Shown piece after piece: positions 2,442-36,008 of a DNA stretch of 64,000 nt. Position 1 is the stretch's first letter, and each line of letters starts with the position of its first letter. The translations under genes and the position numbers were made by a program. The DNA is taken from contig JACRFK010000004.1 of NCBI GenBank assembly GCA_016217925.1, positions 46,435 through 110,434 of the forward strand, in the 5' to 3' direction. Under the pieces are notes generated by a model. It had not been told where the DNA came from. It ran no database searches and was given only the letters and a program-made list of their open reading frames with translations. Source of the stretch: Candidatus Kaiserbacteria bacterium. Its GTDB lineage: Bacteria > Patescibacteriota > Minisyncoccia > Phycocordibacterales > UBA2100.

Positions 2442-3014
2442 TTATAGATGCGTTTCCGCAATTGCCTTATTGATGGAAGAGAGCAGCTTGTCGCGTTTGG
2501 CTTCCACCTCGGAGAGGTGCTCGATGCCATATGCAGTATGAGTGAAGAGGGTTGATTCAAGGGCCTCCGGGGAAATATATCCTAGCGCATACAAGACACG
2601 TGCCACACATACAACTTCGACGGCCGTCACCGATGTATGTGTCCCCGTTGTGAGTGCCTGGTGCGCATTCGCAAGTGTCTCGAAGAGATACTCGCTCTTT
2701 TCTTCTCCGTGCACGAGCCGCATTGTGAGCTCCGCGATGCGCGCGAATGTGGCTATGCACTTCCTGTCGCCCGTCGCCGATTTGAGCGCAGCTGCACCGG
2801 CGAGCCGCCATCCGCGCTTCCCCTTCACCAACGACACCTTCGCGCGCGAGTAATCTTGGACCGCATATCGCATCTTTGAACGTTCCTTGCGCACGGCGGA
2901 CGCGCGTGCGCGTACGAGTCCGAAGTCGCGGGTGAAAAGCACAATCATCCTATCCGCTTCGCTCATCTCGCGATTTCCCAGTACGAGCGCTTCGGTGTGG
3001 TATTTCTGGTACAT
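2442..3014 (-). CDS. recO: DNA repair protein RecO
   Basis: 190 aa; N-terminal OB-fold region (..MIVLFTRDFGLVRARA..) and overall layout typical of RecO; the start codon directly abuts an inverted-repeat element. Confidence 0.75.
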   Translation of the reverse strand: MYQKYHTEALVLGNREMSEADRMIVLFTRDFGLVRARASAVRKERSKMRYAVQDYSRAKVSLVKGKRGWRLAGAAALKSATGDRKCIATFARIAELTMRLVHGEEKSEYLFETLANAHQALTTGTHTSVTAVEVVCVARVLYALGYISPEALESTLFTHTAYGIEHLSEVEAKRDKLLSSINKAIAETHL

Positions 3015-3096
3015 CCCGTTAGAAATAGGAAGCTTGCGCTTCCAACTCCAAGATTATAACACCTTGTCTTTCATAACTTCCGTTATTTCTAACGGG
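3015..3096. repeat. IR element #1 (arms CCCGTTAGAAATA / TATTTCTAACGGG) between ileS stop and recO start
   Basis: 13-bp perfect inverted arms flank 56 bp containing hairpin GGAAGC-ttgc-GCTTCC and, on the recO strand, a TATAAT box. The arm ends directly at the recO ATG. Confidence 0.7.
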
Positions 3097-3104
3097 ATAC
3101 ATGC

Positions 3105-6074
3105 TTATTCGAATTCGATAATCGTGCTCGTAGCCTTTTGCAGCTCAGCGAGATACTTCTCGAGAATCGTCCGACTCTCTGGAGAAACTTTAAGCCGGTG
3201 CGTGGCAGATTCTCCGGGCTTCATGTTTTGTGATTTCCTGAACGCCTGTATCTCGCGAATGGTGTCGCGCACGAGCCCCTCTTCACGCAGTTCGTCCGTA
3301 ATGTTCGTGTCAAGCGCGACGCCATCGCCTGTCCGTTCCACCTTTTTCACGTTCACCTCGTCGGCGACGATAGAAAGATACTTATCGGCAAGCTTCGTAC
3401 CGCGCGGGATCGAGAGCGTCGCTAGCGGCTGGCGGACCTTTATCTTCGCTGCGTCGCGTGCTTCGAGCGCTTTCGTCACGATGGCGCGCGCGGCCTCCAT
3501 GGCTTCAAGAAGTTCTTTGTCCTTATTCGTGCCCCCGAACAGCCGCGCGAAGAATCCTGTCGGCACGGAGACTTCGGGCCACATTGCGAGGTGCACACTT
3601 TCTTCATCTTCGCTTTCACGTACCGCTTGAAAGAGGTGCTCCGCAAAGAAAGGCGTCGCAGGAGCCATCACGAGCGAGAGACGATGGAGCACGTAGCGCA
3701 ACGTCGCAAGTGCCGCCGTTTTATCTGGACCGTCTTCTTTAAAACGTTCACGACTTCTTCGGAGGTACCACACGGAAAGGTCGTCGATGAATTTGGGAAG
3801 CGGTCGCGCCGCAGCATCGAGCTGATAGCTCTCGTAACCCTGTGTCGTCGCGATGATGCACTCATCGAGGCGCGCAATTATCCATCTGTCTAAGATGTTC
3901 GAACTATTCCAATCACGCGGAGTGTCATCATTGTAGAGCTGCCAGAATGCGAGCACATTGCCGAGGCGGCCGATGTTTTTCTTCGCTACTTCATCGACGC
4001 CGCTTTCGGAAAAACTCAGATTCTCCGCCTGCATGACGGGAGAAGAAAGCAGGTAGAGCCGCAGCGCGTCGGCGCCATATTTCTCCACAACTTCCATCGG
4101 GTCGGGATAATTCTGCAATTTCTTGGACATTTTCTTGCCGTCTTCTGCCAAGACGATGCCGTTCACAATGACGTTTTGAAATGTGTTCTTTTGGAAGAGG
4201 GCGCCGCCGAGCACGTGCAAGTAATAGAACCATGCGCGCGTCTGGTCCAGTCCTTCGGCAATGAACTGCGCGGGGAACGTCGCCTCGAACCGTTCCTTGT
4301 TTTTAAAAGGGTAATGTTTTTCTCCATAAGGCATCGAGCCCGAATCAAACCATGTGTCCAAGACGTCGGGAATTCTTTTCATCGTGCCTGAGCATTTCTC
4401 GCAGTCAAAAGTTACTTCGTCTACTATATGCTTGTGTAGGTCATCAATTGCGCGGCCGCTTGCCTTTTCAAGCTCTTTGGCGCTCCCAAAAACAATCTCG
4501 TGCCCGCATCCCTTGCTGCCAACTGCCAACTGCTTACTGCTAACTGTCCCCATGCAGCGCCACACAGGAATGACGCTCGCCCAGAAACGCTGCCGCGAGA
4601 TAGACCAGTCGCGCGCGCCTTCGAGCCATTTACCGAATCTCCCCTCTTTGATGTGCGACGGCGTCCAATTGACCGCTTCCGCATTTTTGAGGAGATTTTC
4701 TTTTACCTTTGTGACGGAGACGAACCACGATGACGTCGCATAGTTGAGGAGCGGCGTATCGCAGCGCCAACAATGCGGATACGAGTGGGTGATATTTTCT
4801 TTCGAGAAAAACAAGCCTTTGTCCTGTAAGTATTTGAGTACGGCGATATCGGTACCGAGCCGTTCTTTGTCGTCATCAGAGCGCGGCTTGACCTCCATGC
4901 CCGCGAAATCTTTTACTTCGGGCTTCATCGTTCCGTCCATATTGACGTGCTGGACGAACGGCAGGTTCTCTCTCTTGGAAAGTTCCCAGTCATCGGCACC
5001 AAAAGCGGGCGCTTCATGCGCGATACCCGTGCCCGCGTCGGTCGTAATGAAATCCGCCGTGTATACTTTCCACCCGTTCTCGCGATTTTTGAGCGTTGTG
5101 TCGCTGCTGTAGTAGTCGAACGGCGGCCTGTATTTTTTGCCGACGAGCTCGTTGCCCTTCACCTCCGAAACGACTTGCGCGTCTTGTAGATCTTTTTGAT
5201 AGCGGTCGAGCGCTGCTTTCGCGAGAATGTAGGTACCCGACTTCGCCCTGACCTTCACATAGTCAATATCGCCTTTCACCGCAAGCGCGGTATTTCCGGG
5301 CAGCGTCCACGGAGTCGTCGTCCACGCCAAGAAATACGTCCCTGGTTCTTCCACGAGTTCGAATTTCAGAGTGACTGAAATATCTTTCATATCTTTGTAC
5401 CCTTCCGCGACTTCCTGTTGAGAGAGCGTCGTCTCGCAGCGCGGGCAGATGTGCATTGAACGGTAATCCTCGTAGACCAGTCCTTTGTCGTATATCTGTT
5501 TGAATACCCACCAGACGGATTCCATGAACGGCTTGTCCATCGTGCGGTACGCGTGCTCCATATCGGCCCAGCGGCCGATGCGCGGGACAATCTTTTCCCA
5601 ATCGGATGCAAATGTAAGTACGCGGGCTCGGCACGTCTCGTTGAATTTTGCGATACCGAATTCTTTTATGTCTTTCTTGTGCTTAAAACCGAGCTCTTTC
5701 TCAACGATGTTTTCTATGGGCAATCCGTGACAATCCCAGCCCCACACACGTGGCACCGAGTAGCCGCGCATCGTCCAGAATCGCGGTACGACGTCTTTGA
5801 TGACCGAGGCGACGATGTGGCCATAGTGCGGCAAGCCCGTAGCGAACGGGGGGCCATCGTAAAAAACGTATTCCCCCTTCGGGGCATCTTTTTTGACCGA
5901 TTTATTGAAAATGTCGTTCTCCTTCCAGAATTTCAGTGTTTTCTCTTCCCGCCGTGCCGTCTCGTTTTTTTGCCGGTTTTCCTCCATTCGTACTATCGTA
6001 GCAGAGAGAACAGGCTGCCGCGAGGTTAAGCCGTCTGTAGCTGAGCGCAGTTCGAGGCGCGGAGAAAACAACAT
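3105..6074 (-). CDS. ileS: isoleucyl-tRNA synthetase
   Basis: Class I aaRS: HIGH-type motif PHYGH, KMSKS variant KMSKK, large editing insertion; 989 aa as called. True start is probably the internal Met (MEENRQKNETARREEK..., ~5987). Confidence 0.93.
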   Translation of the reverse strand: MLFSPRLELRSATDGLTSRQPVLSATIVRMEENRQKNETARREEKTLKFWKENDIFNKSVKKDAPKGEYVFYDGPPFATGLPHYGHIVASVIKDVVPRFWTMRGYSVPRVWGWDCHGLPIENIVEKELGFKHKKDIKEFGIAKFNETCRARVLTFASDWEKIVPRIGRWADMEHAYRTMDKPFMESVWWVFKQIYDKGLVYEDYRSMHICPRCETTLSQQEVAEGYKDMKDISVTLKFELVEEPGTYFLAWTTTPWTLPGNTALAVKGDIDYVKVRAKSGTYILAKAALDRYQKDLQDAQVVSEVKGNELVGKKYRPPFDYYSSDTTLKNRENGWKVYTADFITTDAGTGIAHEAPAFGADDWELSKRENLPFVQHVNMDGTMKPEVKDFAGMEVKPRSDDDKERLGTDIAVLKYLQDKGLFFSKENITHSYPHCWRCDTPLLNYATSSWFVSVTKVKENLLKNAEAVNWTPSHIKEGRFGKWLEGARDWSISRQRFWASVIPVWRCMGTVSSKQLAVGSKGCGHEIVFGSAKELEKASGRAIDDLHKHIVDEVTFDCEKCSGTMKRIPDVLDTWFDSGSMPYGEKHYPFKNKERFEATFPAQFIAEGLDQTRAWFYYLHVLGGALFQKNTFQNVIVNGIVLAEDGKKMSKKLQNYPDPMEVVEKYGADALRLYLLSSPVMQAENLSFSESGVDEVAKKNIGRLGNVLAFWQLYNDDTPRDWNSSNILDRWIIARLDECIIATTQGYESYQLDAAARPLPKFIDDLSVWYLRRSRERFKEDGPDKTAALATLRYVLHRLSLVMAPATPFFAEHLFQAVRESEDEESVHLAMWPEVSVPTGFFARLFGGTNKDKELLEAMEAARAIVTKALEARDAAKIKVRQPLATLSIPRGTKLADKYLSIVADEVNVKKVERTGDGVALDTNITDELREEGLVRDTIREIQAFRKSQNMKPGESATHRLKVSPESRTILEKYLAELQKATSTIIEFE

Positions 6075-28546: not shown

Positions 28547-29017
28547 ATGCCACCTCAGAGGACCGTTTTGCGATGGAATGCGTACGAACATGAGCACGTA
28601 CCGCGCGGCAGCGACTGGTATTGGGCTCTCGGCATCATCGCGGTCTCTGCGGCGATTACGAGCATCCTTTTCCACGATGTCCTCTTCGCGATACTCATAC
28701 TCATCGCCGCTGCGATTTTGGGCATGCTGGCGAATGTCCCGCCAGAGATCGTGCGGTTCGAGATATCAGACCGCGGAGTTCGCGTGGGCGATACTATGCA
28801 TCGTTTTGAGGAGATAATCTCATTCTGGGTCGAGGAAGAAGGGCTCGATCGTCCGCTCCTTCTCGTCGACACGACGAAATTGATGGCTCCAAATCTCATT
28901 ATTCCCCTCGAGAATATAGACCCGCATGCGGTGCGTAGCTACCTGCGCGAACATGCCGAAGAGGTCCCGATGAAAGAACCTGTTGCGCACAAGATCCTCG
29001 AATTCTTTGGGTTGTAA
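28547..29017 (+). CDS. small two-TM membrane protein, function unknown
   Basis: 156 aa; hydrophobic segments WYWALGIIAVSAAITSILF and LFAILILIAAAILGML; GGGATACAAT box 9 nt upstream of the ATG. Confidence 0.5.
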   Translation: MPPQRTVLRWNAYEHEHVPRGSDWYWALGIIAVSAAITSILFHDVLFAILILIAAAILGMLANVPPEIVRFEISDRGVRVGDTMHRFEEIISFWVEEEGLDRPLLLVDTTKLMAPNLIIPLENIDPHAVRSYLREHAEEVPMKEPVAHKILEFFGL

Positions 29018-29021
29018 CGAT

Positions 29022-31214
29022 TTACTCGGCGACCGAGACAGTGGTCGTTGCTTCTTTAGTGCCTCCGGCAACTGTTTCGCAGTGAAGGAGGAACATCGCG
29101 CTCGTTGTTATCGGCGAGGTTGTCGCCGCGCCGGCGACACTCGTGTTGGAAGAGTTACGCTCGGTGAAGTCTTCCTGGTCTGGACTCGAGATGACGCAAG
29201 AGGTCATTCCTGTCGTAAGCCAGGAAAGAAGCGAGGTGCCGTTTGGGGGGACAGTTTTGGGATTCGCCACAAGAATGATGGTCGGGCGTGATACCTGGAC
29301 GGAGCATTGGGCGCCGGAGGTCTTAGCTCCGTCGACACACGCAAGAGAGTAGGTAGCGGTGTTGGTGCCGGCCGGAGGGTTCGCGACGGTCGTTGTGGCA
29401 GAGCCTCCGGGCTGGGTGGTGACGGTGAAGGAACTGCTGGAGGCGATGCCGGAGGAACAGCCGTAGGTGATGGCGATCTGCTGACCTACGTCGGCGACCT
29501 CAGGAGAGCACGAGAGGGTCGCCTTCGGCGTGCCTCCGCCTGTGGGGATGCACTGCCAATTCGTGATGCAAGCGCCGCTGTAGGTGGGCTGCCAAGAACC
29601 GGTGGTGCAGTTGTTGGGGTTGGGTCGTTGGGGTTGCATGGAGCACTGCCCTTGGGTTGACGGCGTGCACGCGACAGGCTGGGCTGGCAGAGGCATCGTC
29701 GGAGCATTGCCGCCGTAGTATTGATTCTGTTGCTGTTGTTGATACTGATACAGCTGGAGCTGATAGTTGTATTGCTGCAACTGTTGCTGGTACTGCTGTT
29801 GCTGCTGGGCATAGGCATTGGGGTCTGTGGAGCACTGTTGAGCGGCGGCAGGAGGCGGCATGGGTGGTGTCGGCTTAAAAGCATTCGCAAGGCCCTTCAG
29901 GAACGAATCGAGTGGTCCCGATGAGGAGTTTGAGGAAGAAGTCCTTCCTGTATTTGGATCTTGAAACGTTTGTTGACCCACGCGGATACAGTTGTTGGGC
30001 GGAGTTCCCGTGCTGCCGGGCGGACACTGTTGAGTCACGCTACCTTTAACGCACTCCGTGTCCCCCGCATCATTCTTCCCGCACTTGTACCCATTATTCT
30101 CAAGGTATCCCGCATCCTTCGGACCGGCCGGATAACACGTCCTTCCGCCGTCGTAACAATCGCGGGTAGCGGTCGGGTCACTGGGAGACCTGTCCAAGGA
30201 AGGATTCGAAGTGTCCCCCTTGTCACCCCCTTCCGGGATGAGAACCTTTGCGTCACCCAAATCCGGGTTTTGCTTGAAGGCATCCTCGGTCACTTGCCTA
30301 GAGGCTTCCAAGGCGGCTTGATCAGGATTGGCAAGTGCCATCTTTAGTATTTGATCGTCTGTTGGTGACGTCGCTGGCAGGGTCAGGGAAGAATCCGCGG
30401 GCTTAACGCCATAGGCGTTGTTCAAAATCTCAAGTGAGCGCGAGTCAATGCCCGACGAAATCTTGACGCCATTTACGCCGGTGCCTGTGTATGCATCAAA
30501 TGTACTTGTGTTTAATGATTGAGTAAGGATAGCGGTCTTATCGATACCGTCCATATTTGCCGTAAAACACTTAAATTCTTTTTTTGTTACGCCCATGTTA
30601 CCCCCCAAAGTAAGTACGCTATTCAGCGTATTACCTGTCGCGTTCGGTGTGCATGCCAGAGTGGCGCATTTTCCAGGCGGCATATTTGGATTCGGTTGCG
30701 TCGTCACCTTTATGCCCCCTTTATCGGAAGCAATGTCAACCTGCGCAGATTTCCCAACACATCGGTATTTAGCCGGTACCGATGCGTCCGGTATCGCCCC
30801 GACACAGTCGTCAGTCGCCTTTTCTGCAGGCTTGGCGGTTCTCTTGGTCGTTGCTGCGATTTTAGCTTCCTTGATTGCCGTTTCGCATTTCTTGGCGAGT
30901 TCGGCTCGCGCCGTTGCTTGTTGGCTGCCTACTGTATCACTGCCGATTCCCCCGGGCGCTGCGGTCTGAGACGCCGGATTGCCACCCGGCAATGTGGATT
31001 CGACACCTACGGCTACGGCCGAGAGAATCGCGACGAAAACGAATGCCGCTACTATCGAAACACCCCGAGCCGGGACTCGTCGTCTGAAAGCCACCATGTC
31101 GCAATCATGCGCCCCGCAGGCCTTTGGTGCAATGTGTATGAAGTGGAAAAGATCTCCGATCTCGGAACACATCCGAGAGGTTACGAAAAACTTATGCATA
31201 TTTTTTATAGACAT
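29022..31214 (-). CDS. giant secreted Gln-rich/Cys-rich surface protein, paralog A
   Basis: 730 aa; signal/TM (..VSIVAAFVFVAILSAVAVG..), Cys-containing central region, poly-Q/Y coiled-coil-like stretch (AQQQQQYQQQLQQYNYQLQLYQYQQQQQNQYY), then CTTGSWQPTYSGACITNWQCIPTGGG plus two Ig-like C-terminal modules. Shares a ~360-bp near-identical DNA block with paralog B. Confidence 0.7.
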   Translation of the reverse strand: MSIKNMHKFFVTSRMCSEIGDLFHFIHIAPKACGAHDCDMVAFRRRVPARGVSIVAAFVFVAILSAVAVGVESTLPGGNPASQTAAPGGIGSDTVGSQQATARAELAKKCETAIKEAKIAATTKRTAKPAEKATDDCVGAIPDASVPAKYRCVGKSAQVDIASDKGGIKVTTQPNPNMPPGKCATLACTPNATGNTLNSVLTLGGNMGVTKKEFKCFTANMDGIDKTAILTQSLNTSTFDAYTGTGVNGVKISSGIDSRSLEILNNAYGVKPADSSLTLPATSPTDDQILKMALANPDQAALEASRQVTEDAFKQNPDLGDAKVLIPEGGDKGDTSNPSLDRSPSDPTATRDCYDGGRTCYPAGPKDAGYLENNGYKCGKNDAGDTECVKGSVTQQCPPGSTGTPPNNCIRVGQQTFQDPNTGRTSSSNSSSGPLDSFLKGLANAFKPTPPMPPPAAAQQCSTDPNAYAQQQQQYQQQLQQYNYQLQLYQYQQQQQNQYYGGNAPTMPLPAQPVACTPSTQGQCSMQPQRPNPNNCTTGSWQPTYSGACITNWQCIPTGGGTPKATLSCSPEVADVGQQIAITYGCSSGIASSSSFTVTTQPGGSATTTVANPPAGTNTATYSLACVDGAKTSGAQCSVQVSRPTIILVANPKTVPPNGTSLLSWLTTGMTSCVISSPDQEDFTERNSSNTSVAGAATTSPITTSAMFLLHCETVAGGTKEATTTVSVAE
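29265..29625. repeat. ~360-bp near-identical (>95%) direct repeat shared with 32724..33084 (paralog gene-conversion tract)
   Basis: Side-by-side reading: ..cgccacaagaatgatggtcgggcgtgatacctggacggagca[t/c]tgggcgccggaggtcttagctccgtcgacaca.. matches in both copies through ..ggtggtgcagttgttggggtt..; flanks are more diverged. Confidence 0.8.
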
Positions 31215-31256
31215 AGAGCACTATGTACTAGTAATTATGTCCTGTACAATTGATGA

Positions 31257-32036
31257 ATGGTTGCAAAACGGTATGCGGTCGATTTGAAGAGTCGTGTAGC
31301 GAAGTTGCGCAGTACGGGTAAAACATATGCTGAAATACAAAAGGTCTTCTCCATTCCAAAGAGCACTCTTTCAGTCTGGCTGGGTAAGAGATACCGGGGA
31401 GTATTCGACAGAAACGCCCAACTTGAACACTTAAAGCGTGCCCGTCTTATCGCTGCAAGAATCCTCCGAGAGCGGAAGATCCAGCGTGATTCAATATCGG
31501 AAGCGAAAGGTATAGACGCGGCACGATTATTACCACTACAAGATGTTGGGTTCAGAAAATCACTTCTTGCCATGCTCTACTGGGCAGAAGGATCAAAACA
31601 CAAAAAGGCAAGTGGTCTGACTTTTACGAATACAGATCCCCGACTAGCGGTTCTCTATATCACGTTACTCAGATCTTGTTTTCTCATAGACGAAAAACGC
31701 CTTAGAATCCGACTGCACGTGCATCATTATCACAACAAAAAAGAGGCTGTGAGATTTTGGTCGCAGCTACTTCACGTTTCACCCGATCAATTTGGGAAAC
31801 TGCATGTAAAAAAGCGCAGCACGAGAAGGAAGTTCCGAAGGAACTTCATGGGTATTTGTTTTATTTCGTACGGTAATACCAGCATGCTGAAAGAAGTCCT
31901 TGCATTTGGTTACGCGATACAGGACCTGATTAACAAATCTCCAACCATGCCCTTGGCAGGAATCGAACCTGCATTTCATCCTTCGCAGGGATGTGTCCTA
32001 TCCATTGAACGACAAGAGCCGACGAGAGAAATGTAA
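31257..32036 (+). CDS. HTH + single-motif LAGLIDADG-like endonuclease ORF; 3' end runs antisense through tRNA-Arg(GCG)
   Basis: 259 aa; N-terminal HTH (GKTYAEIQKVFSIPKSTLSVWL), degenerate LAGLIDADG motif LLAMLYWAEGSK, basic C-terminus. Confidence 0.5.
   Translation: MVAKRYAVDLKSRVAKLRSTGKTYAEIQKVFSIPKSTLSVWLGKRYRGVFDRNAQLEHLKRARLIAARILRERKIQRDSISEAKGIDAARLLPLQDVGFRKSLLAMLYWAEGSKHKKASGLTFTNTDPRLAVLYITLLRSCFLIDEKRLRIRLHVHHYHNKKEAVRFWSQLLHVSPDQFGKLHVKKRSTRRKFRRNFMGICFISYGNTSMLKEVLAFGYAIQDLINKSPTMPLAGIEPAFHPSQGCVLSIERQEPTREM
31948..32019 (-). tRNA. tRNA-Arg (GCG), putative
   Basis: Acceptor GCTCTTG/CAAGGGC (one G-U), D-arm GTTC-AATGGATA-GGAC, anticodon stem CATCC/GGATG with loop CTGCGAA (GCG), T-arm GCAGG-TTCGATT-CCTGC. 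The rare anticodon and antisense overlap with a CDS lower confidence. Confidence 0.55.
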
Positions 32037-32066
32037 CACGTTTCGATTTTTTTCGTAACGCCACTC

Positions 32067-34997
32067 TTACCGCATCGTGAACGGGTCCGTGAATCCGAAC
32101 TCCAGGTACAGTGGGTCGGGCGCCGACGGTGGCGTATTCGGCTCACCGAGATTTGCGTCGGCAGGAGTGTACAGATCCGCCTCTATCATATAATCGCGAC
32201 CGCTCACGAGATCTGTGTCGCACACATAAGGAGTACCCGACGGGCACGCATCGCCCGCGTTCGGTACATGCCAGTCATAACTGCCGCTCGTCGCCTTCCC
32301 TCCCGCGATAAGCCCCACGACCTCACCGCCCTGCACATCGACTAACCATAGCGATATTGCCGAGCCTGGAGGCGGATTTATCGTGCGCCAGGCGATGGTC
32401 GTCGTCGTGCCGAGCGGTACCGTCGCCCCGTCTATCGTAGAACTCGCCTCCACCAACCCGCCGGCAAAATTGTCGGGAACTCCCGCAACGTGGACAGTGG
32501 TCGTTGCTCCCTTGGTACCTCCTGCGAGAGTCTGACACTCGAGATGGATACGTGCGGCTGATGTAAGTGGCGTCGTCGTAGCCGCGCCGGCAACGCTCGT
32601 ATTACTCATATTTTGTATCGTGAAGCCGGGCATGTCCGGACTCGATATCACACAGGAATCCATCCCCGTCGTGAGCCAGCTGATGAGCGAGGTGCTGCTC
32701 GCGGCGGTAACCGTGGCGGGATTCGCCACAAGAATGATGGTCGGGCGTGATACCTGGACGGAGCACTGGGCGCCGGAGGTCTTAGCTCCGTCGACACAGG
32801 CCAGAGAGTAGGTCGCAGTGTTGGTGCCGGCGGGGGGATTCTGGACGGTCGTGGTGGCAGAGCCTCCGGGCTGGGTAGTGATGGTGAAGGAACTGCTGGA
32901 GGCGATGCCGGAGGAACAGCCGTAGGTGATGGCGATCTGCTGACCTACGTCTGCGACCTCAGGAGAGCACGAGAGGGTCGCCTTCGGCGCGCCTCCGCCC
33001 GTGGGGATGCATTGCCAATTCGTGATGCAAGCGCCGCTGTAGGTGGGCTGCCACGAGCCGGTGGTGCAGTTGTTGGGGTTTGGTTGTGGGACTTGGTCTC
33101 GGCACTGGTTGCCGGTCGACGGGGAGCATGGGGTGGGTCGTTGCGGAAGTGGTAAGTCGGGCGGCGTGATACCGCCGTTTCTTTCTGCATAGAACTGGTT
33201 CATCTGCTGCTGGTACTGCTGTTGCTGGAGCTGGTAGTTGTACTGCTGTAACTGCTGCTGGTACTGCTGTTGCTGCTGGGCGTATACGTTCTGATCGGTC
33301 GAGCAGGCTTGGGCGGGCGCGGCTGGCGGAGATTGCGGAGCACCGAGCGCTTTCATAAGTCCCTCGAGCATAGAGCTGAGCGCCTTCCCGATATCACCCC
33401 CGCCACCGCCCGGCTTGTCGCCACCCGGTTTCTCGCCACCAGTTCCCGGCCCGGCGCCCGGACCAGCCGGCGGAGTAGGCGTTTTGACCTCCGGTTTTGC
33501 ATCCGGCGTCCCGTCGCCTTTCTTGACCTCTGGCTTGACTTCCGGCTTCGGCACATCGGTCTTTGCTCCAGGTTTGGGCGCAGGCCCTGATTTTGGACAC
33601 GTTGACGCGTCGGACCCCGGGCTTCCACAAGGAGTTCCGAAAGCATCCGTCATCTGTGGAGTTTTTTTGTCTACAGAGTCTGCCTTGTCCCCAGACTTCG
33701 GCGGAGTGTTTTTCTCTCCAGCATCCGCCTTGTCTCCAGATTTCGGTGTACTTGGGCCTGATGGTGATGCGTCAGTTTTCTGCGGCGGGCTACTTCCCTG
33801 TTCATCCTTCAGCTTCTGTGCCTGAAGTCTATCCAACTCTTCTTGTTTCGCCTCAGGAAAGTTTTCGCCAGCCCCCGCGTTAGCGATTGCTTTCTCATTT
33901 TCAAGCTCTTGAATGCGCGCATCCCTCTCGAGCGCGATTTGTTTGTCTGCCTCAGCCCATGCCGCCTGGTCGGAACGAATTGTTTCCTCTAGCGCGGCTT
34001 GATTGTTTGCCCCAGCCCATGCCGCCTGGTCGGAACGAATTGTATTCTCCAGCTCGGCTCTTCTAAGTTCCTCTGGAGTGGCTGCGGGCCCAAAGGTGTC
34101 GTTGACCCCTGGCGTGGTAGGACCAAAGGCATCCTTCAGATTGGCATACTCTGCCGCCTGTTCTGGCGTGAGCTTCACGGCATTCTCACCGAGCGCTTTA
34201 TCTATCGCCCATGGATTCTCTCCTTGGTAGTCACTAGGTATCGGCGCGGTCGGGTCGTTACCGTATGCTTGAATCTGTTCCAGCGCAGTAGCCTCTTTCA
34301 ATGCCTTATCACGCAGGGCCTCATTCGAGGTGTACGCCGAATACGCGTTCCGTATTGCCTCTTGATCGCATCCTGACTGACCCGCCATACAAACTGCATC
34401 AAGTTGCGTATACGCATCTTTTTGATCTTTTGCTAACGCGTCGTACGCCGCCGCCTGGTCTCTTAGTTTTTGGATTTCATCAGCATTCGACGGGACCTTG
34501 GGCGGCTCGCCTGTCCCGGCATCGTCTGTAGGGCCTTTTGTCAACGTACATTGCTTTTCGTCGCAGATGTCCGCATGGCAGATATTCTCTGCTATACAGT
34601 AGCCTTGCGCAGCAATATCCGTATCCTCCGTATGCTGGCATTTCTTCCACGACAGATTTGTTATTATGACCTTAACGTACGAACCCTCTTGGTACGTCGG
34701 CCCCTTCGCCTTGGTCCCGTATTTATGTGTCGTGTCCTCTTTCGGGCACTCCTTATCGGCCTCTTTGGGGTCGCTGGGTGTCGACGCCGCGCTTTGTGCC
34801 AGCTGCGCTTGCGGGGCGAACGCATATGAAGAGGCTGAAGAAAACGAGTTGGCTACCTCGACGACGCCTGTTACGCCGCCGAGGATGGCTACAAACACAA
34901 GGGGGGTTACAAGAGAAAACTTTCGCTCCCGGTTGAGCGATTCGTGGAAAACCATATCACAATAATGCGGCCTATAGGGCGAAGCTGCAATGCGCAA
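32067..34997 (-). CDS. giant secreted Gln-rich/Cys-rich surface protein, paralog B
   Basis: 976 aa; signal/TM (..LVTPLVFVAILGGVTGVVEV..), Pro/Lys/Glu-rich spacer (KPEVKPEVKKGDGTPDAKPEVKTPTPP), tandem ~27-aa repeat (TIRSDQAAWA..), poly-Q/Y stretch, then the same CTTGSWQPTYSGACITNWQCIPTGGG + Ig-like tail as paralog A, plus an extra C-terminal domain. Confidence 0.7.
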   Translation of the reverse strand: MRIAASPYRPHYCDMVFHESLNRERKFSLVTPLVFVAILGGVTGVVEVANSFSSASSYAFAPQAQLAQSAASTPSDPKEADKECPKEDTTHKYGTKAKGPTYQEGSYVKVIITNLSWKKCQHTEDTDIAAQGYCIAENICHADICDEKQCTLTKGPTDDAGTGEPPKVPSNADEIQKLRDQAAAYDALAKDQKDAYTQLDAVCMAGQSGCDQEAIRNAYSAYTSNEALRDKALKEATALEQIQAYGNDPTAPIPSDYQGENPWAIDKALGENAVKLTPEQAAEYANLKDAFGPTTPGVNDTFGPAATPEELRRAELENTIRSDQAAWAGANNQAALEETIRSDQAAWAEADKQIALERDARIQELENEKAIANAGAGENFPEAKQEELDRLQAQKLKDEQGSSPPQKTDASPSGPSTPKSGDKADAGEKNTPPKSGDKADSVDKKTPQMTDAFGTPCGSPGSDASTCPKSGPAPKPGAKTDVPKPEVKPEVKKGDGTPDAKPEVKTPTPPAGPGAGPGTGGEKPGGDKPGGGGGDIGKALSSMLEGLMKALGAPQSPPAAPAQACSTDQNVYAQQQQQYQQQLQQYNYQLQQQQYQQQMNQFYAERNGGITPPDLPLPQRPTPCSPSTGNQCRDQVPQPNPNNCTTGSWQPTYSGACITNWQCIPTGGGAPKATLSCSPEVADVGQQIAITYGCSSGIASSSSFTITTQPGGSATTTVQNPPAGTNTATYSLACVDGAKTSGAQCSVQVSRPTIILVANPATVTAASSTSLISWLTTGMDSCVISSPDMPGFTIQNMSNTSVAGAATTTPLTSAARIHLECQTLAGGTKGATTTVHVAGVPDNFAGGLVEASSTIDGATVPLGTTTTIAWRTINPPPGSAISLWLVDVQGGEVVGLIAGGKATSGSYDWHVPNAGDACPSGTPYVCDTDLVSGRDYMIEADLYTPADANLGEPNTPPSAPDPLYLEFGFTDPFTMR
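32724..33084. repeat. second copy of the ~360-bp near-identical block (see 29265..29625)
   Basis: As above. Confidence 0.8.
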
Positions 34998-35429: not shown

Positions 35430-36008
35430 ATGATAGGACACCTAATGGGTAAGGTGACTGCGGTACGCGCCGGATACGCCATCATTTCCGCGGGTGGCGT
35501 CGGATACAAAGTATTCGCGACACGCGAGCTTCTGCTCACACTGAAGCAAGGCGGCGAAGCGGCGCTCTGGACCCACCTCGCGGTGCGCGAGAGCATTCTC
35601 GACCTCTACGGCTTTTCCAACGAGGAGGAGCTACGACTCTTCGAACTCCTACTGACCGTTTCCGGTATCGGGCCGAAGTCCGCGCTCGCCATTCTCGATA
35701 TCGCATCGGTCGAGACACTGCGCAGCGCCATCTCTGCGGGCAACGCGTCGTACCTCACCAAAGTCTCAGGCATCGGCAAAAAGACCGCCGAGAAAATCGT
35801 GCTCGAGTTGAAAGACAAAGTGGGCGTGTCGGCGGCCGGTAGTGCGGCGTCGCTTCATGGTGACGAAGAAGCGCTCGAGGCGATGCGCGCGCTCGGATAT
35901 TCGCAGGGAGAAGCGCGCGATGCCCTGCGTAAAGTTCCCCAGGAAGTCGAACGCTCCAATGATAGGTTGCGGGAGGCGTTGCGAATACTGGGTTCAAACA
36001 AAAAGTGA
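35430..36008 (+). CDS. ruvA: Holliday junction DNA helicase subunit RuvA
   Basis: 192 aa; MIGHLMGKV..GGVGYKV OB domain, two HhH motifs (..VSGIGPKSALAIL.., ..VSGIGKKTAEKIV..), C-terminal domain III. Confidence 0.9.
   Translation: MIGHLMGKVTAVRAGYAIISAGGVGYKVFATRELLLTLKQGGEAALWTHLAVRESILDLYGFSNEEELRLFELLLTVSGIGPKSALAILDIASVETLRSAISAGNASYLTKVSGIGKKTAEKIVLELKDKVGVSAAGSAASLHGDEEALEAMRALGYSQGEARDALRKVPQEVERSNDRLREALRILGSNKK

Follow-up and report, generated by a model that had tools for sequence, protein, structure and literature searches.

WhiA, a transcription factor of Gram-positive bacteria that is universal in its clade, combines two degenerate LAGLIDADG domains with a C-terminal helix-turn-helix (HTH) and has no catalytic acids. 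Single-motif LAGLIDADG endonucleases are abundant in the ribosomal RNA (rRNA) insertions of the candidate phyla radiation, and the phylum considered here was already known to be rich in them (PMC11270868). The Patescibacteria also have group I introns in the anticodon loop of transfer RNA (tRNA) genes, mostly without endonuclease genes and with few encoding HNH proteins (PMC13011429), and T4 SegB is a free-standing homing endonuclease encoded inside the T4 tRNA gene cluster (PMC2330249). The subject of this work is an open reading frame (ORF) from a Candidatus Kaiserbacteria bacterium, located on the forward strand at 31257..32036 of a stretch of 64,000 nucleotides (nt), hereafter called the window (GenBank assembly GCA_016217925.1, contig JACRFK010000004.1, positions 46,435 to 110,434). 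It codes for 259 residues plus a stop, exactly as in the first-pass annotation, which had been made from the sequence without database searches. The protein has an N-terminal HTH, a LAGLIDADG-like domain and a tail that is read antisense through a tRNA-Arg(GCG) gene. We propose that this ORF is probably a free-standing homing-endonuclease-type gene that targets the edges of tRNA genes and belongs to a large, unannotated and probably selfish family.

This family shares with T4 SegB the location of an endonuclease-type gene among tRNA genes, which favors the inheritance of the neighboring tRNA region, and its viral relatives likewise lie in tRNA arrays. Yet SegB is a GIY-YIG protein with an unrelated fold, and neither a rule of one subfamily for one tRNA nor a nucleotide-tight abutment to the tRNA edge has been described for it. 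The tRNA group I introns come from the same phylum and also use tRNA genes as sites for selfish elements, but in the present case the gene is external to an uninterrupted tRNA; the study of these introns (PMC13011429) does not describe the family. A literature search found no earlier description of the family or of its tRNA rule, and its main domain has no Pfam model.

Association of the family with tRNA gene edges

The homologues of the ORF number in the hundreds and belong almost exclusively to the Patescibacteria (Parcubacteria/Paceibacteria). They typically have 223-236 residues, the length at which the protein of the window reaches the tRNA. A full hidden Markov model (HMM) scan of 1.84 billion representatives (clusters at 50% identity) retrieved 2,672 clusters at E ≤ 1e-10 and 4,847 at E ≤ 1e-3. 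The genomic context was studied in 80 loci fetched by their similarity to the ORF (L001-L080), in which 89 family members were found. A tRNA gene on the same strand starts between -120 and +60 nt from the ORF end in 78 of these 89 family ORFs, compared with 47 of 794 other ORFs (odds ratio 113, p = 7.5e-66). Most of the remaining 11 members can be explained: four have an antisense tRNA (the window and L001-L003), one is a pseudogene (L008), two are the upstream copies of tandem pairs (L056 and L059) and at least one is cut by a contig end (L080); L018_0, L025_8 and L053 make up the rest. The family profile ends at a median distance of 4 nt from the tRNA edge, and within about 12 nt of it in 60 of 73 cases. 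This rule is valid for the 5' end of the tRNA and, in the antisense clade, for its 3' end. Each subfamily goes with the edge of a particular tRNA gene: in 79 of 82 cases, the nearest neighbor taken from a different locus is linked to the same tRNA, and subfamilies can be recognized for Arg(GCG), Arg(CCG), Arg(CCT), Lys(CUU), Tyr, Trp, Gln, Val(GAC) and others.

The same association is seen on viral contigs. A scan of IMG/VR recovered 12 loci (L161-L172) on contigs listed as viral, most of them 150-500 kb long. All 12 relatives are full length (E-values from 1e-17 to 1e-47), carry the motif CMLYWAEGSK and are located in or adjoining tRNA genes, with up to 23 tRNAs within 5.2 kb in L164 and 15 in L169; two of them have an antisense tRNA at the end of the ORF, like the window. 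A tblastn search of the cultured phage genomes in INPHARED found no relative.

Many family ORFs lack a stop codon of their own and end on stop triplets inside the tRNA, with recurrent overlaps of 9, 14 and 21-22 nt. The stop may be a TAG at tRNA positions 8-10 or lie in the D-loop (examples are found at 6672-6693 in L004 and 6681-6690 in L005). If RNase P cut first, mRNAs with such a stop would lose it.

Some loci depart from the simple arrangement of one ORF and one tRNA. In one clade (L035 5820-6788, L040 1933-2869 and L046 5826-6723) the ORF lies between two tRNA-Arg genes, with the GCG gene about 80-110 nt upstream of the ORF and the CCG gene abutting its 3' end; the CCG-linked proteins form a subfamily of their own. 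Two loci (L056 5315-6633 and L059 5327-6648) carry two tandem family genes, 45-48% identical, upstream of a single tRNA-Lys(CUU), and each copy has its own orthologue in the other genome. These tandems may derive from an old duplication or from a re-invasion of the same site, and they raise the possibility of heterodimers. In L026, a fragment of the 5' half of a tRNA (GTCCCCGTAGCTCAGTGGATAGAGCG, around 3225-3269) is found between the end of the ORF and a complete tRNA-Arg(GCG) and resembles the remains of a tRNA gene that has been replaced. The presence of an att-like tRNA fragment flanking the ORF was rejected as a general feature: Smith-Waterman comparisons of the 200 nt upstream with the tRNA of each locus gave a median z of 0.5, and a T-arm-like stretch was found in L001 and L048 only.

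The tRNA-Arg(GCG) gene and the antisense overlap

The tRNA at the end of the ORF is a canonical tRNA-Arg(GCG) on the reverse strand (31948..32019, anticodon at 31984-31986, no encoded CCA) that is detected by ARAGORN and Rfam. Its Rfam score is 63.4 bits over the full length (gathering score 29), and its minimum free energy fold is a clean cloverleaf. The tRNA is preceded, at 10 nt, by an extended -10-like box (TGTTACATT, 32030..32038, reverse strand), whose homologue is found before the tRNA in L082, a related locus devoid of the ORF; the box of the window contains the stop of the ORF. The first-pass annotation was therefore right to place a well-folded tRNA-Arg(GCG) antisense to the end of the ORF. 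It was also right that the ORF runs through the tRNA, which is crossed entirely, but the overlap involves 29 codons (residues 231-259) and not about 25, and the TAA stop (32034-32036) lies 15-17 nt past the 5' end of the tRNA. The overlapping tail (31947..32036, forward strand, stop included) is outside the conserved core, as the family profile stops about 16 nt short of the tRNA in the window. Its apparent conservation in close relatives is due to the conservation of the tRNA itself. The antisense overlap consists of a read-through tail, free of constraint, that crosses a normal tRNA-Arg.

The overlap had initially been interpreted as the sign of either a decoy or pseudo-tRNA or a decaying ORF. 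The former is contradicted by a canonical tRNA that scores above the threshold and is the conserved partner in 45 orthologous loci, and the latter by an intact core with all the family-invariant residues, decay not being implied by a non-conserved tail of low predicted local distance difference test (pLDDT) values. Neither can GCG be called a rare anticodon in this lineage. In addition to the 45 orthologous ORF loci, tRNA-Arg(GCG) is present in 34 loci baited with ruvA, and the 92 Arg tRNAs in the Patescibacteria loci consist of 50 GCG, 15 CCG, 11 UCU, 9 UCG, 7 CCU and no ACG, so that GCG is the normal CGY decoder. Judging from the Arg tRNAs of the sampled loci, these lineages seem to decode CGN without inosine by means of GCG, UCG and CCG, in an archaeal-like manner. 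Since the CGN box is covered without an ACG anticodon, TadA would not be needed.

Domain architecture of the protein

The conserved family core corresponds to residues 1 to ~226 of the window protein. The AlphaFold2 model built with 117 homologues is confident (pLDDT 88) and displays an HTH, a long helix and a compact alpha/beta domain, followed by the poorly modeled tail (residues 231-259, pLDDT 47-58). The three-helix HTH (residues 8-42, 31278..31382) is of the transposase / paired / resolvase type. The N-terminal HTH announced by the first-pass annotation is real and solid across the family (HTH_23 in 50 of 63 members; Sleeping Beauty PAI subdomain at 2e-5 with the profile), but it is weak for the window protein alone (HTH_SB, E = 5.8e-5, under the Pfam cut-off). 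Searches of this protein against Pfam, NCBIfam, PHROGs and PADLOC returned HTH-level matches only, plus a weak PADLOC "HEase" match at the N-terminus (E = 0.01). A long linker helix (residues 52-90, 31410..31526) precedes a single LAGLIDADG-like domain (residues 97-225, 31545..31931), the first helix of which contains the motif LLAMLYWAEGSK (residues 103-114, 31563..31598). In this motif, E111 and G112 do not vary among 117 sequences and reach a conservation of 90% or more in a set of 63 diverse ones; K114 is retained by at least 90% of the members. A LLAMLYWAEG-type motif is found in nearly all the full-length members among the 89 genome-locus copies and in all the viral relatives.

The C-terminal domain is predicted to have the alpha-beta-beta-alpha-beta-beta-alpha core fold of LAGLIDADG proteins, and its motif helix has the conserved acidic residue followed by a Gly. 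Using hhalign, LLAMLYWAEGSK was aligned with the second motif of I-DmoI (GLYVAEGDK, P = 0.0037), a weak pairwise match; no match was obtained with I-CreI. The domain has no match in HMM searches against Pfam (LAGLIDADG_1/2/3, Hom_end), NCBIfam or the PDB, the family HMM profiles (117 and 63 sequences) matched PDB sequences only through the HTH, and Foldseek retrieved nothing significant from the PDB, the top matches being OmpA-like. The original suggestion of an HTH with a single degenerate LAGLIDADG motif thus stands at the level of fold and motif and fails at the level of sequence profiles. Because of this combination, the protein is termed LAGLIDADG-like, an assignment supported by the predicted fold and the motif.

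The best structural matches are LAGLIDADG enzymes (I-DmoI-type domains and the single-motif homodimers I-CreI, I-CeuI and I-ShaI, the last from rRNA insertions of the candidate phyla radiation). The family has in common with them the helix ending in an acidic residue and a Gly (LYWAEG), the Lys that comes next as in the AEGDK of I-DmoI, one motif per chain, a sporadic distribution and an AT-rich composition. It differs from them by its lack of similarity to the Pfam LAGLIDADG_1/2/3 profiles, by a very short first beta hairpin, by an extra helix and hairpin in the second half of the domain and by the added N-terminal HTH and long linker helix. Furthermore, its genes are free-standing instead of intron- or intein-encoded, an Rfam search of the window having detected no intron, they are linked to tRNA and not to rRNA or protein genes, and their activity is only predicted. 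The family does not conform to a WhiA-type regulator either, as it has one domain, an N-terminal HTH, the Glu-Gly-x-Lys with its acidic residue retained and a sporadic distribution.

Six nt before the ATG, the ORF is preceded by an extended -10-like box (TGTACAAT, 31243..31250, forward strand). There is no Shine-Dalgarno sequence, and similar boxes occur 5' of the orthologues. The box and the missing Shine-Dalgarno sequence suggest a promoter of the leaderless type. A consensus promoter scan around the ORF and the tRNA was uninformative and did not call the TGTACAAT box.

Occupied and empty sites

The genes around the Arg(GCG) subfamily form a block that is conserved across the class: c1, the ORF, tRNA-Arg, ruvA, a Mur ligase, an LTD protein and a SpoU methylase. 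The window keeps this block from c1 (28547..29017, forward strand), a membrane protein of 156 residues with no Pfam match, to the SpoU methylase, with ruvA at 35430..36008 (forward strand) and two giant paralogs inserted on both sides of the ORF and the tRNA. A sample unbiased towards the ORF was obtained by fetching 80 metagenome loci by RuvA; 25 of them were evaluable, that is, they had a tRNA-Arg(GCG) upstream of ruvA and at least 750 nt on each side. The ORF is present in two of these 25 loci, and an unfiltered HMM search at E ≤ 10 found no remnant of it in the other 23. The closest relative sampled, L082 (RuvA 91% identical, ~72% identity at the nucleotide level), has the same order as the window (c1, paralog A, tRNA-Arg(GCG), paralog B, ruvA) with no ORF and with the tRNA and its promoter inverted. 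Since the same flanks exist without the ORF, the latter is a presence/absence polymorphism, and the comparison of related genomes that had been suggested as a check for homing does reveal a sporadic gene. Decay is occasional: the L008 pseudogene has two in-frame stops and a frameshifted stretch, and L043 and L039 lack the N-terminal part.

Pairwise identities discordant with the hosts and a foreign composition both speak for horizontal movement. The identity of the ORF is decoupled from that of RuvA, as illustrated by the comparison of the window with L004 (RuvA 74%, ORF 52%) and L005 (RuvA 41%, ORF 55%). The GC content of the ORF is 44.7% compared with 54.2% for the window, which puts it in the lowest 1.4% of segments of that size; at third codon positions it is 44%, compared with 60-69% in the neighboring genes. 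The ORF is AT-richer than its own flanks in 77 of 77 loci. It is the sole family member in the 64 kb of the window.

The tRNA-Arg of the window is 94% identical to that of the ORF-bearing L004 (6672-6746), where RuvA is 74% identical, and only 82% identical to that of the ORF-less L082 (2680-2754), despite the 91% identity of RuvA. The differing positions are concentrated in the anticodon stem and loop (CCUGCGAA versus CUUGCGGA). This pattern of sequence similarity may reflect the co-transfer of the tRNA allele with the ORF. Substitutions that would confer "immunity" by separating the tRNAs of occupied loci from those of empty loci were also considered and rejected, the differences being explained by lineage sampling. 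In the relatives of the window with an empty locus, the tRNA is preceded by an extended -10 box at a distance of ~10 nt. Co-directional occupied loci have no such box before the tRNA and show a comparable one 6-10 nt ahead of the ORF, so that the ORF is probably co-transcribed with the tRNA there.

Flanking paralogs and other features of the window

As noted in the first-pass annotation, the ORF lies between two large paralogous genes, both on the reverse strand: paralog A (29022..31214, true start probably near 31097) and paralog B (32067..34997). They have no Pfam domain, contain Q-rich low-complexity stretches and have a common Cys-rich C-terminal part. In the window they share a 300-nt tract at 94% identity; in L082 the two paralogs (639-2657 and 2770-5580) flank the tRNA, and their best common tract has 116 nt at 88%. 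Since L082 has the paralogs without the ORF, they do not depend on it.

Of 39 Arg(GCG) loci, 10 (shuffle mean 0.7), including L001, L004, L011, L017, L020 and L023, have a motif TTATCCACA-N5-GAAC-N-TAG located ~50-110 nt before the ORF; a weak version is present in the window around 31205-31230. Its first 9 nt correspond to the DnaA-box consensus, and an inverted TGTGGAAA box is found in some loci, also upstream of the tRNA in empty ones. DnaA boxes are no more enriched in the window than expected by chance. The spacer between dnaN (54881-55990, reverse strand) and dnaA (56208-57572, reverse strand), at 55991-56207, is richer in AT than any other stretch of the window (GC ~42%). It is probably the replication origin, and it contains no consensus DnaA box.

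Origin and function of the family

The architecture of the protein, the tRNA-edge rule, the specificity of the subfamilies, the sporadic distribution, the foreign composition, the decay and the viral context together argue for a homing-endonuclease-type family, and they point to tRNA genes as its conserved landing site. The protein would dimerize through the LAGLIDADG helix, and the dimer, together with the HTH, would recognize a site at the edge of the tRNA gene in alleles devoid of the ORF. The predicted nuclease would cut this site, and the repair of the double-strand break from an ORF-bearing allele would copy the ORF and probably the adjoining tRNA allele as well. The tRNA gene would thus supply a conserved target and a homology arm and, in most genomes, co-transcription too. 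In the lineage of the window the tRNA is opposite in direction, with its own promoter, and the ORF abuts the 3' end of the tRNA; as the tRNA is reversed and no stop precedes it, the ORF reads antisense up to a TAA in the -10 box of the tRNA. Since the acceptor stem is self-complementary, its 7 bp are read inward near-identically from either end of the gene, which may explain the abutment at both ends. In the window these reads are GCTCTTG and GCCCTTG; exact identity can be lost through a G-U pair or the discriminator base.

Several observations weigh against the homing-endonuclease explanation. The structural similarity is moderate, and WhiA, which is non-catalytic, obtains an equal score. The orthologues are about as conserved as RuvA (mean identity 47.6 versus 48.3%, r = 0.51) and their GC content follows that of the host (r = 0.87), which indicates long residence and purifying selection and would also fit a protein useful to the host. 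No pair of occupied and empty loci closer than ~72% nucleotide identity was found, which leaves the insertion boundary undefined. With a target located entirely within the tRNA gene, the nuclease would also cut the copy of its own host, and the explanation would have to account for how such self-cleavage is avoided. Cleavage, target site and co-conversion tract are all still proposals.

The conservation at the level of RuvA and the host-tracking composition could alternatively mean that the protein was domesticated as a non-catalytic DNA-binding protein, following the same logic as WhiA, and that it is kept for a host function such as transcriptional control of the neighboring tRNA gene or its own promoter. 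We regard this as rather unlikely. The presence of the ORF in only two of 25 syntenic loci and its absence from the closest relative sampled indicate that it is not needed for the expression of tRNA-Arg, which in the lineage of the window has its own promoter in the opposite orientation. Moreover, the metal-binding-type acidic residue and the Lys that follows are kept almost universally, unlike in WhiA, the phylogeny reflected in pairwise identities is discordant, the codon usage is foreign, and the viral tRNA arrays suit selfish genes better. The HTH, which resembles those of IS630/Tc1/Sleeping Beauty, IS3 and resolvases, and the strictly tRNA-adjacent location might instead suggest a single-gene element similar to an insertion sequence, namely a transposase or integrase that uses the vicinity of tRNA genes as a safe haven in the manner of eukaryotic tRNA-targeted retroelements. 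Such an element appears improbable, given that no terminal inverted or direct repeats surround the ORF, that the duplication of tRNA fragments is not general and that the protein has no recombinase domain of the DDE, serine or tyrosine type, its C-terminal domain matching the LAGLIDADG fold. In addition, paralogues inside one genome are only ~30% identical, which speaks against recent transposition.

The first-pass annotation had favored a recombinogenic element specific to the junction of the giant paralogs, which would seed their conversion next to a decoy or pseudo-tRNA or from a decaying ORF. The tract shared by the paralogs is indeed longer and more similar in the window than in the ORF-less L082, and breaks made by a nearby nuclease could promote conversion. 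Nevertheless, many genomes devoid of the paralogs have the ORF and the tRNA at this locus, the reverse situation (both paralogs, no ORF) is seen in L082, and the window itself has a canonical, conserved tRNA and an ORF with an intact core, all of which make this scenario very hard to sustain. A contribution of nuclease breaks to the conversion of the paralogs is not supported, the comparative data neither showing nor excluding it.

If the ORF does belong to a homing-endonuclease-type family, a further and quite speculative step is to consider the ORF and the tRNA as one drive cassette. The nuclease would read the end of the acceptor stem, and could thereby sit at either tRNA edge, and homing would replace the resident tRNA allele, its orientation and its anticodon-stem variant. 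Hints in this direction are the tRNA of the window, closer to that of L004 than to that of L082, the inversion of the tRNA and its promoter with respect to L082 and the tRNA remnant of L026.

Implications for Patescibacteria and huge phages

The rule that the core ends at the tRNA edge in either orientation is a directly testable target-site hypothesis. If its members are active nucleases, the family would be a new branch of LAGLIDADG-type enzymes with natural specificities for different tRNA genes, which would be of interest for meganuclease engineering. An active family would also explain part of the load of "hypothetical" genes in ultra-small genomes, the ORFs annotated over tRNAs in these metagenome-assembled genomes and some of the unknown genes in the tRNA arrays of huge phages. 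Should the drive cassette prove true, the family would shape the tRNA gene repertoires of Patescibacteria and huge phages.
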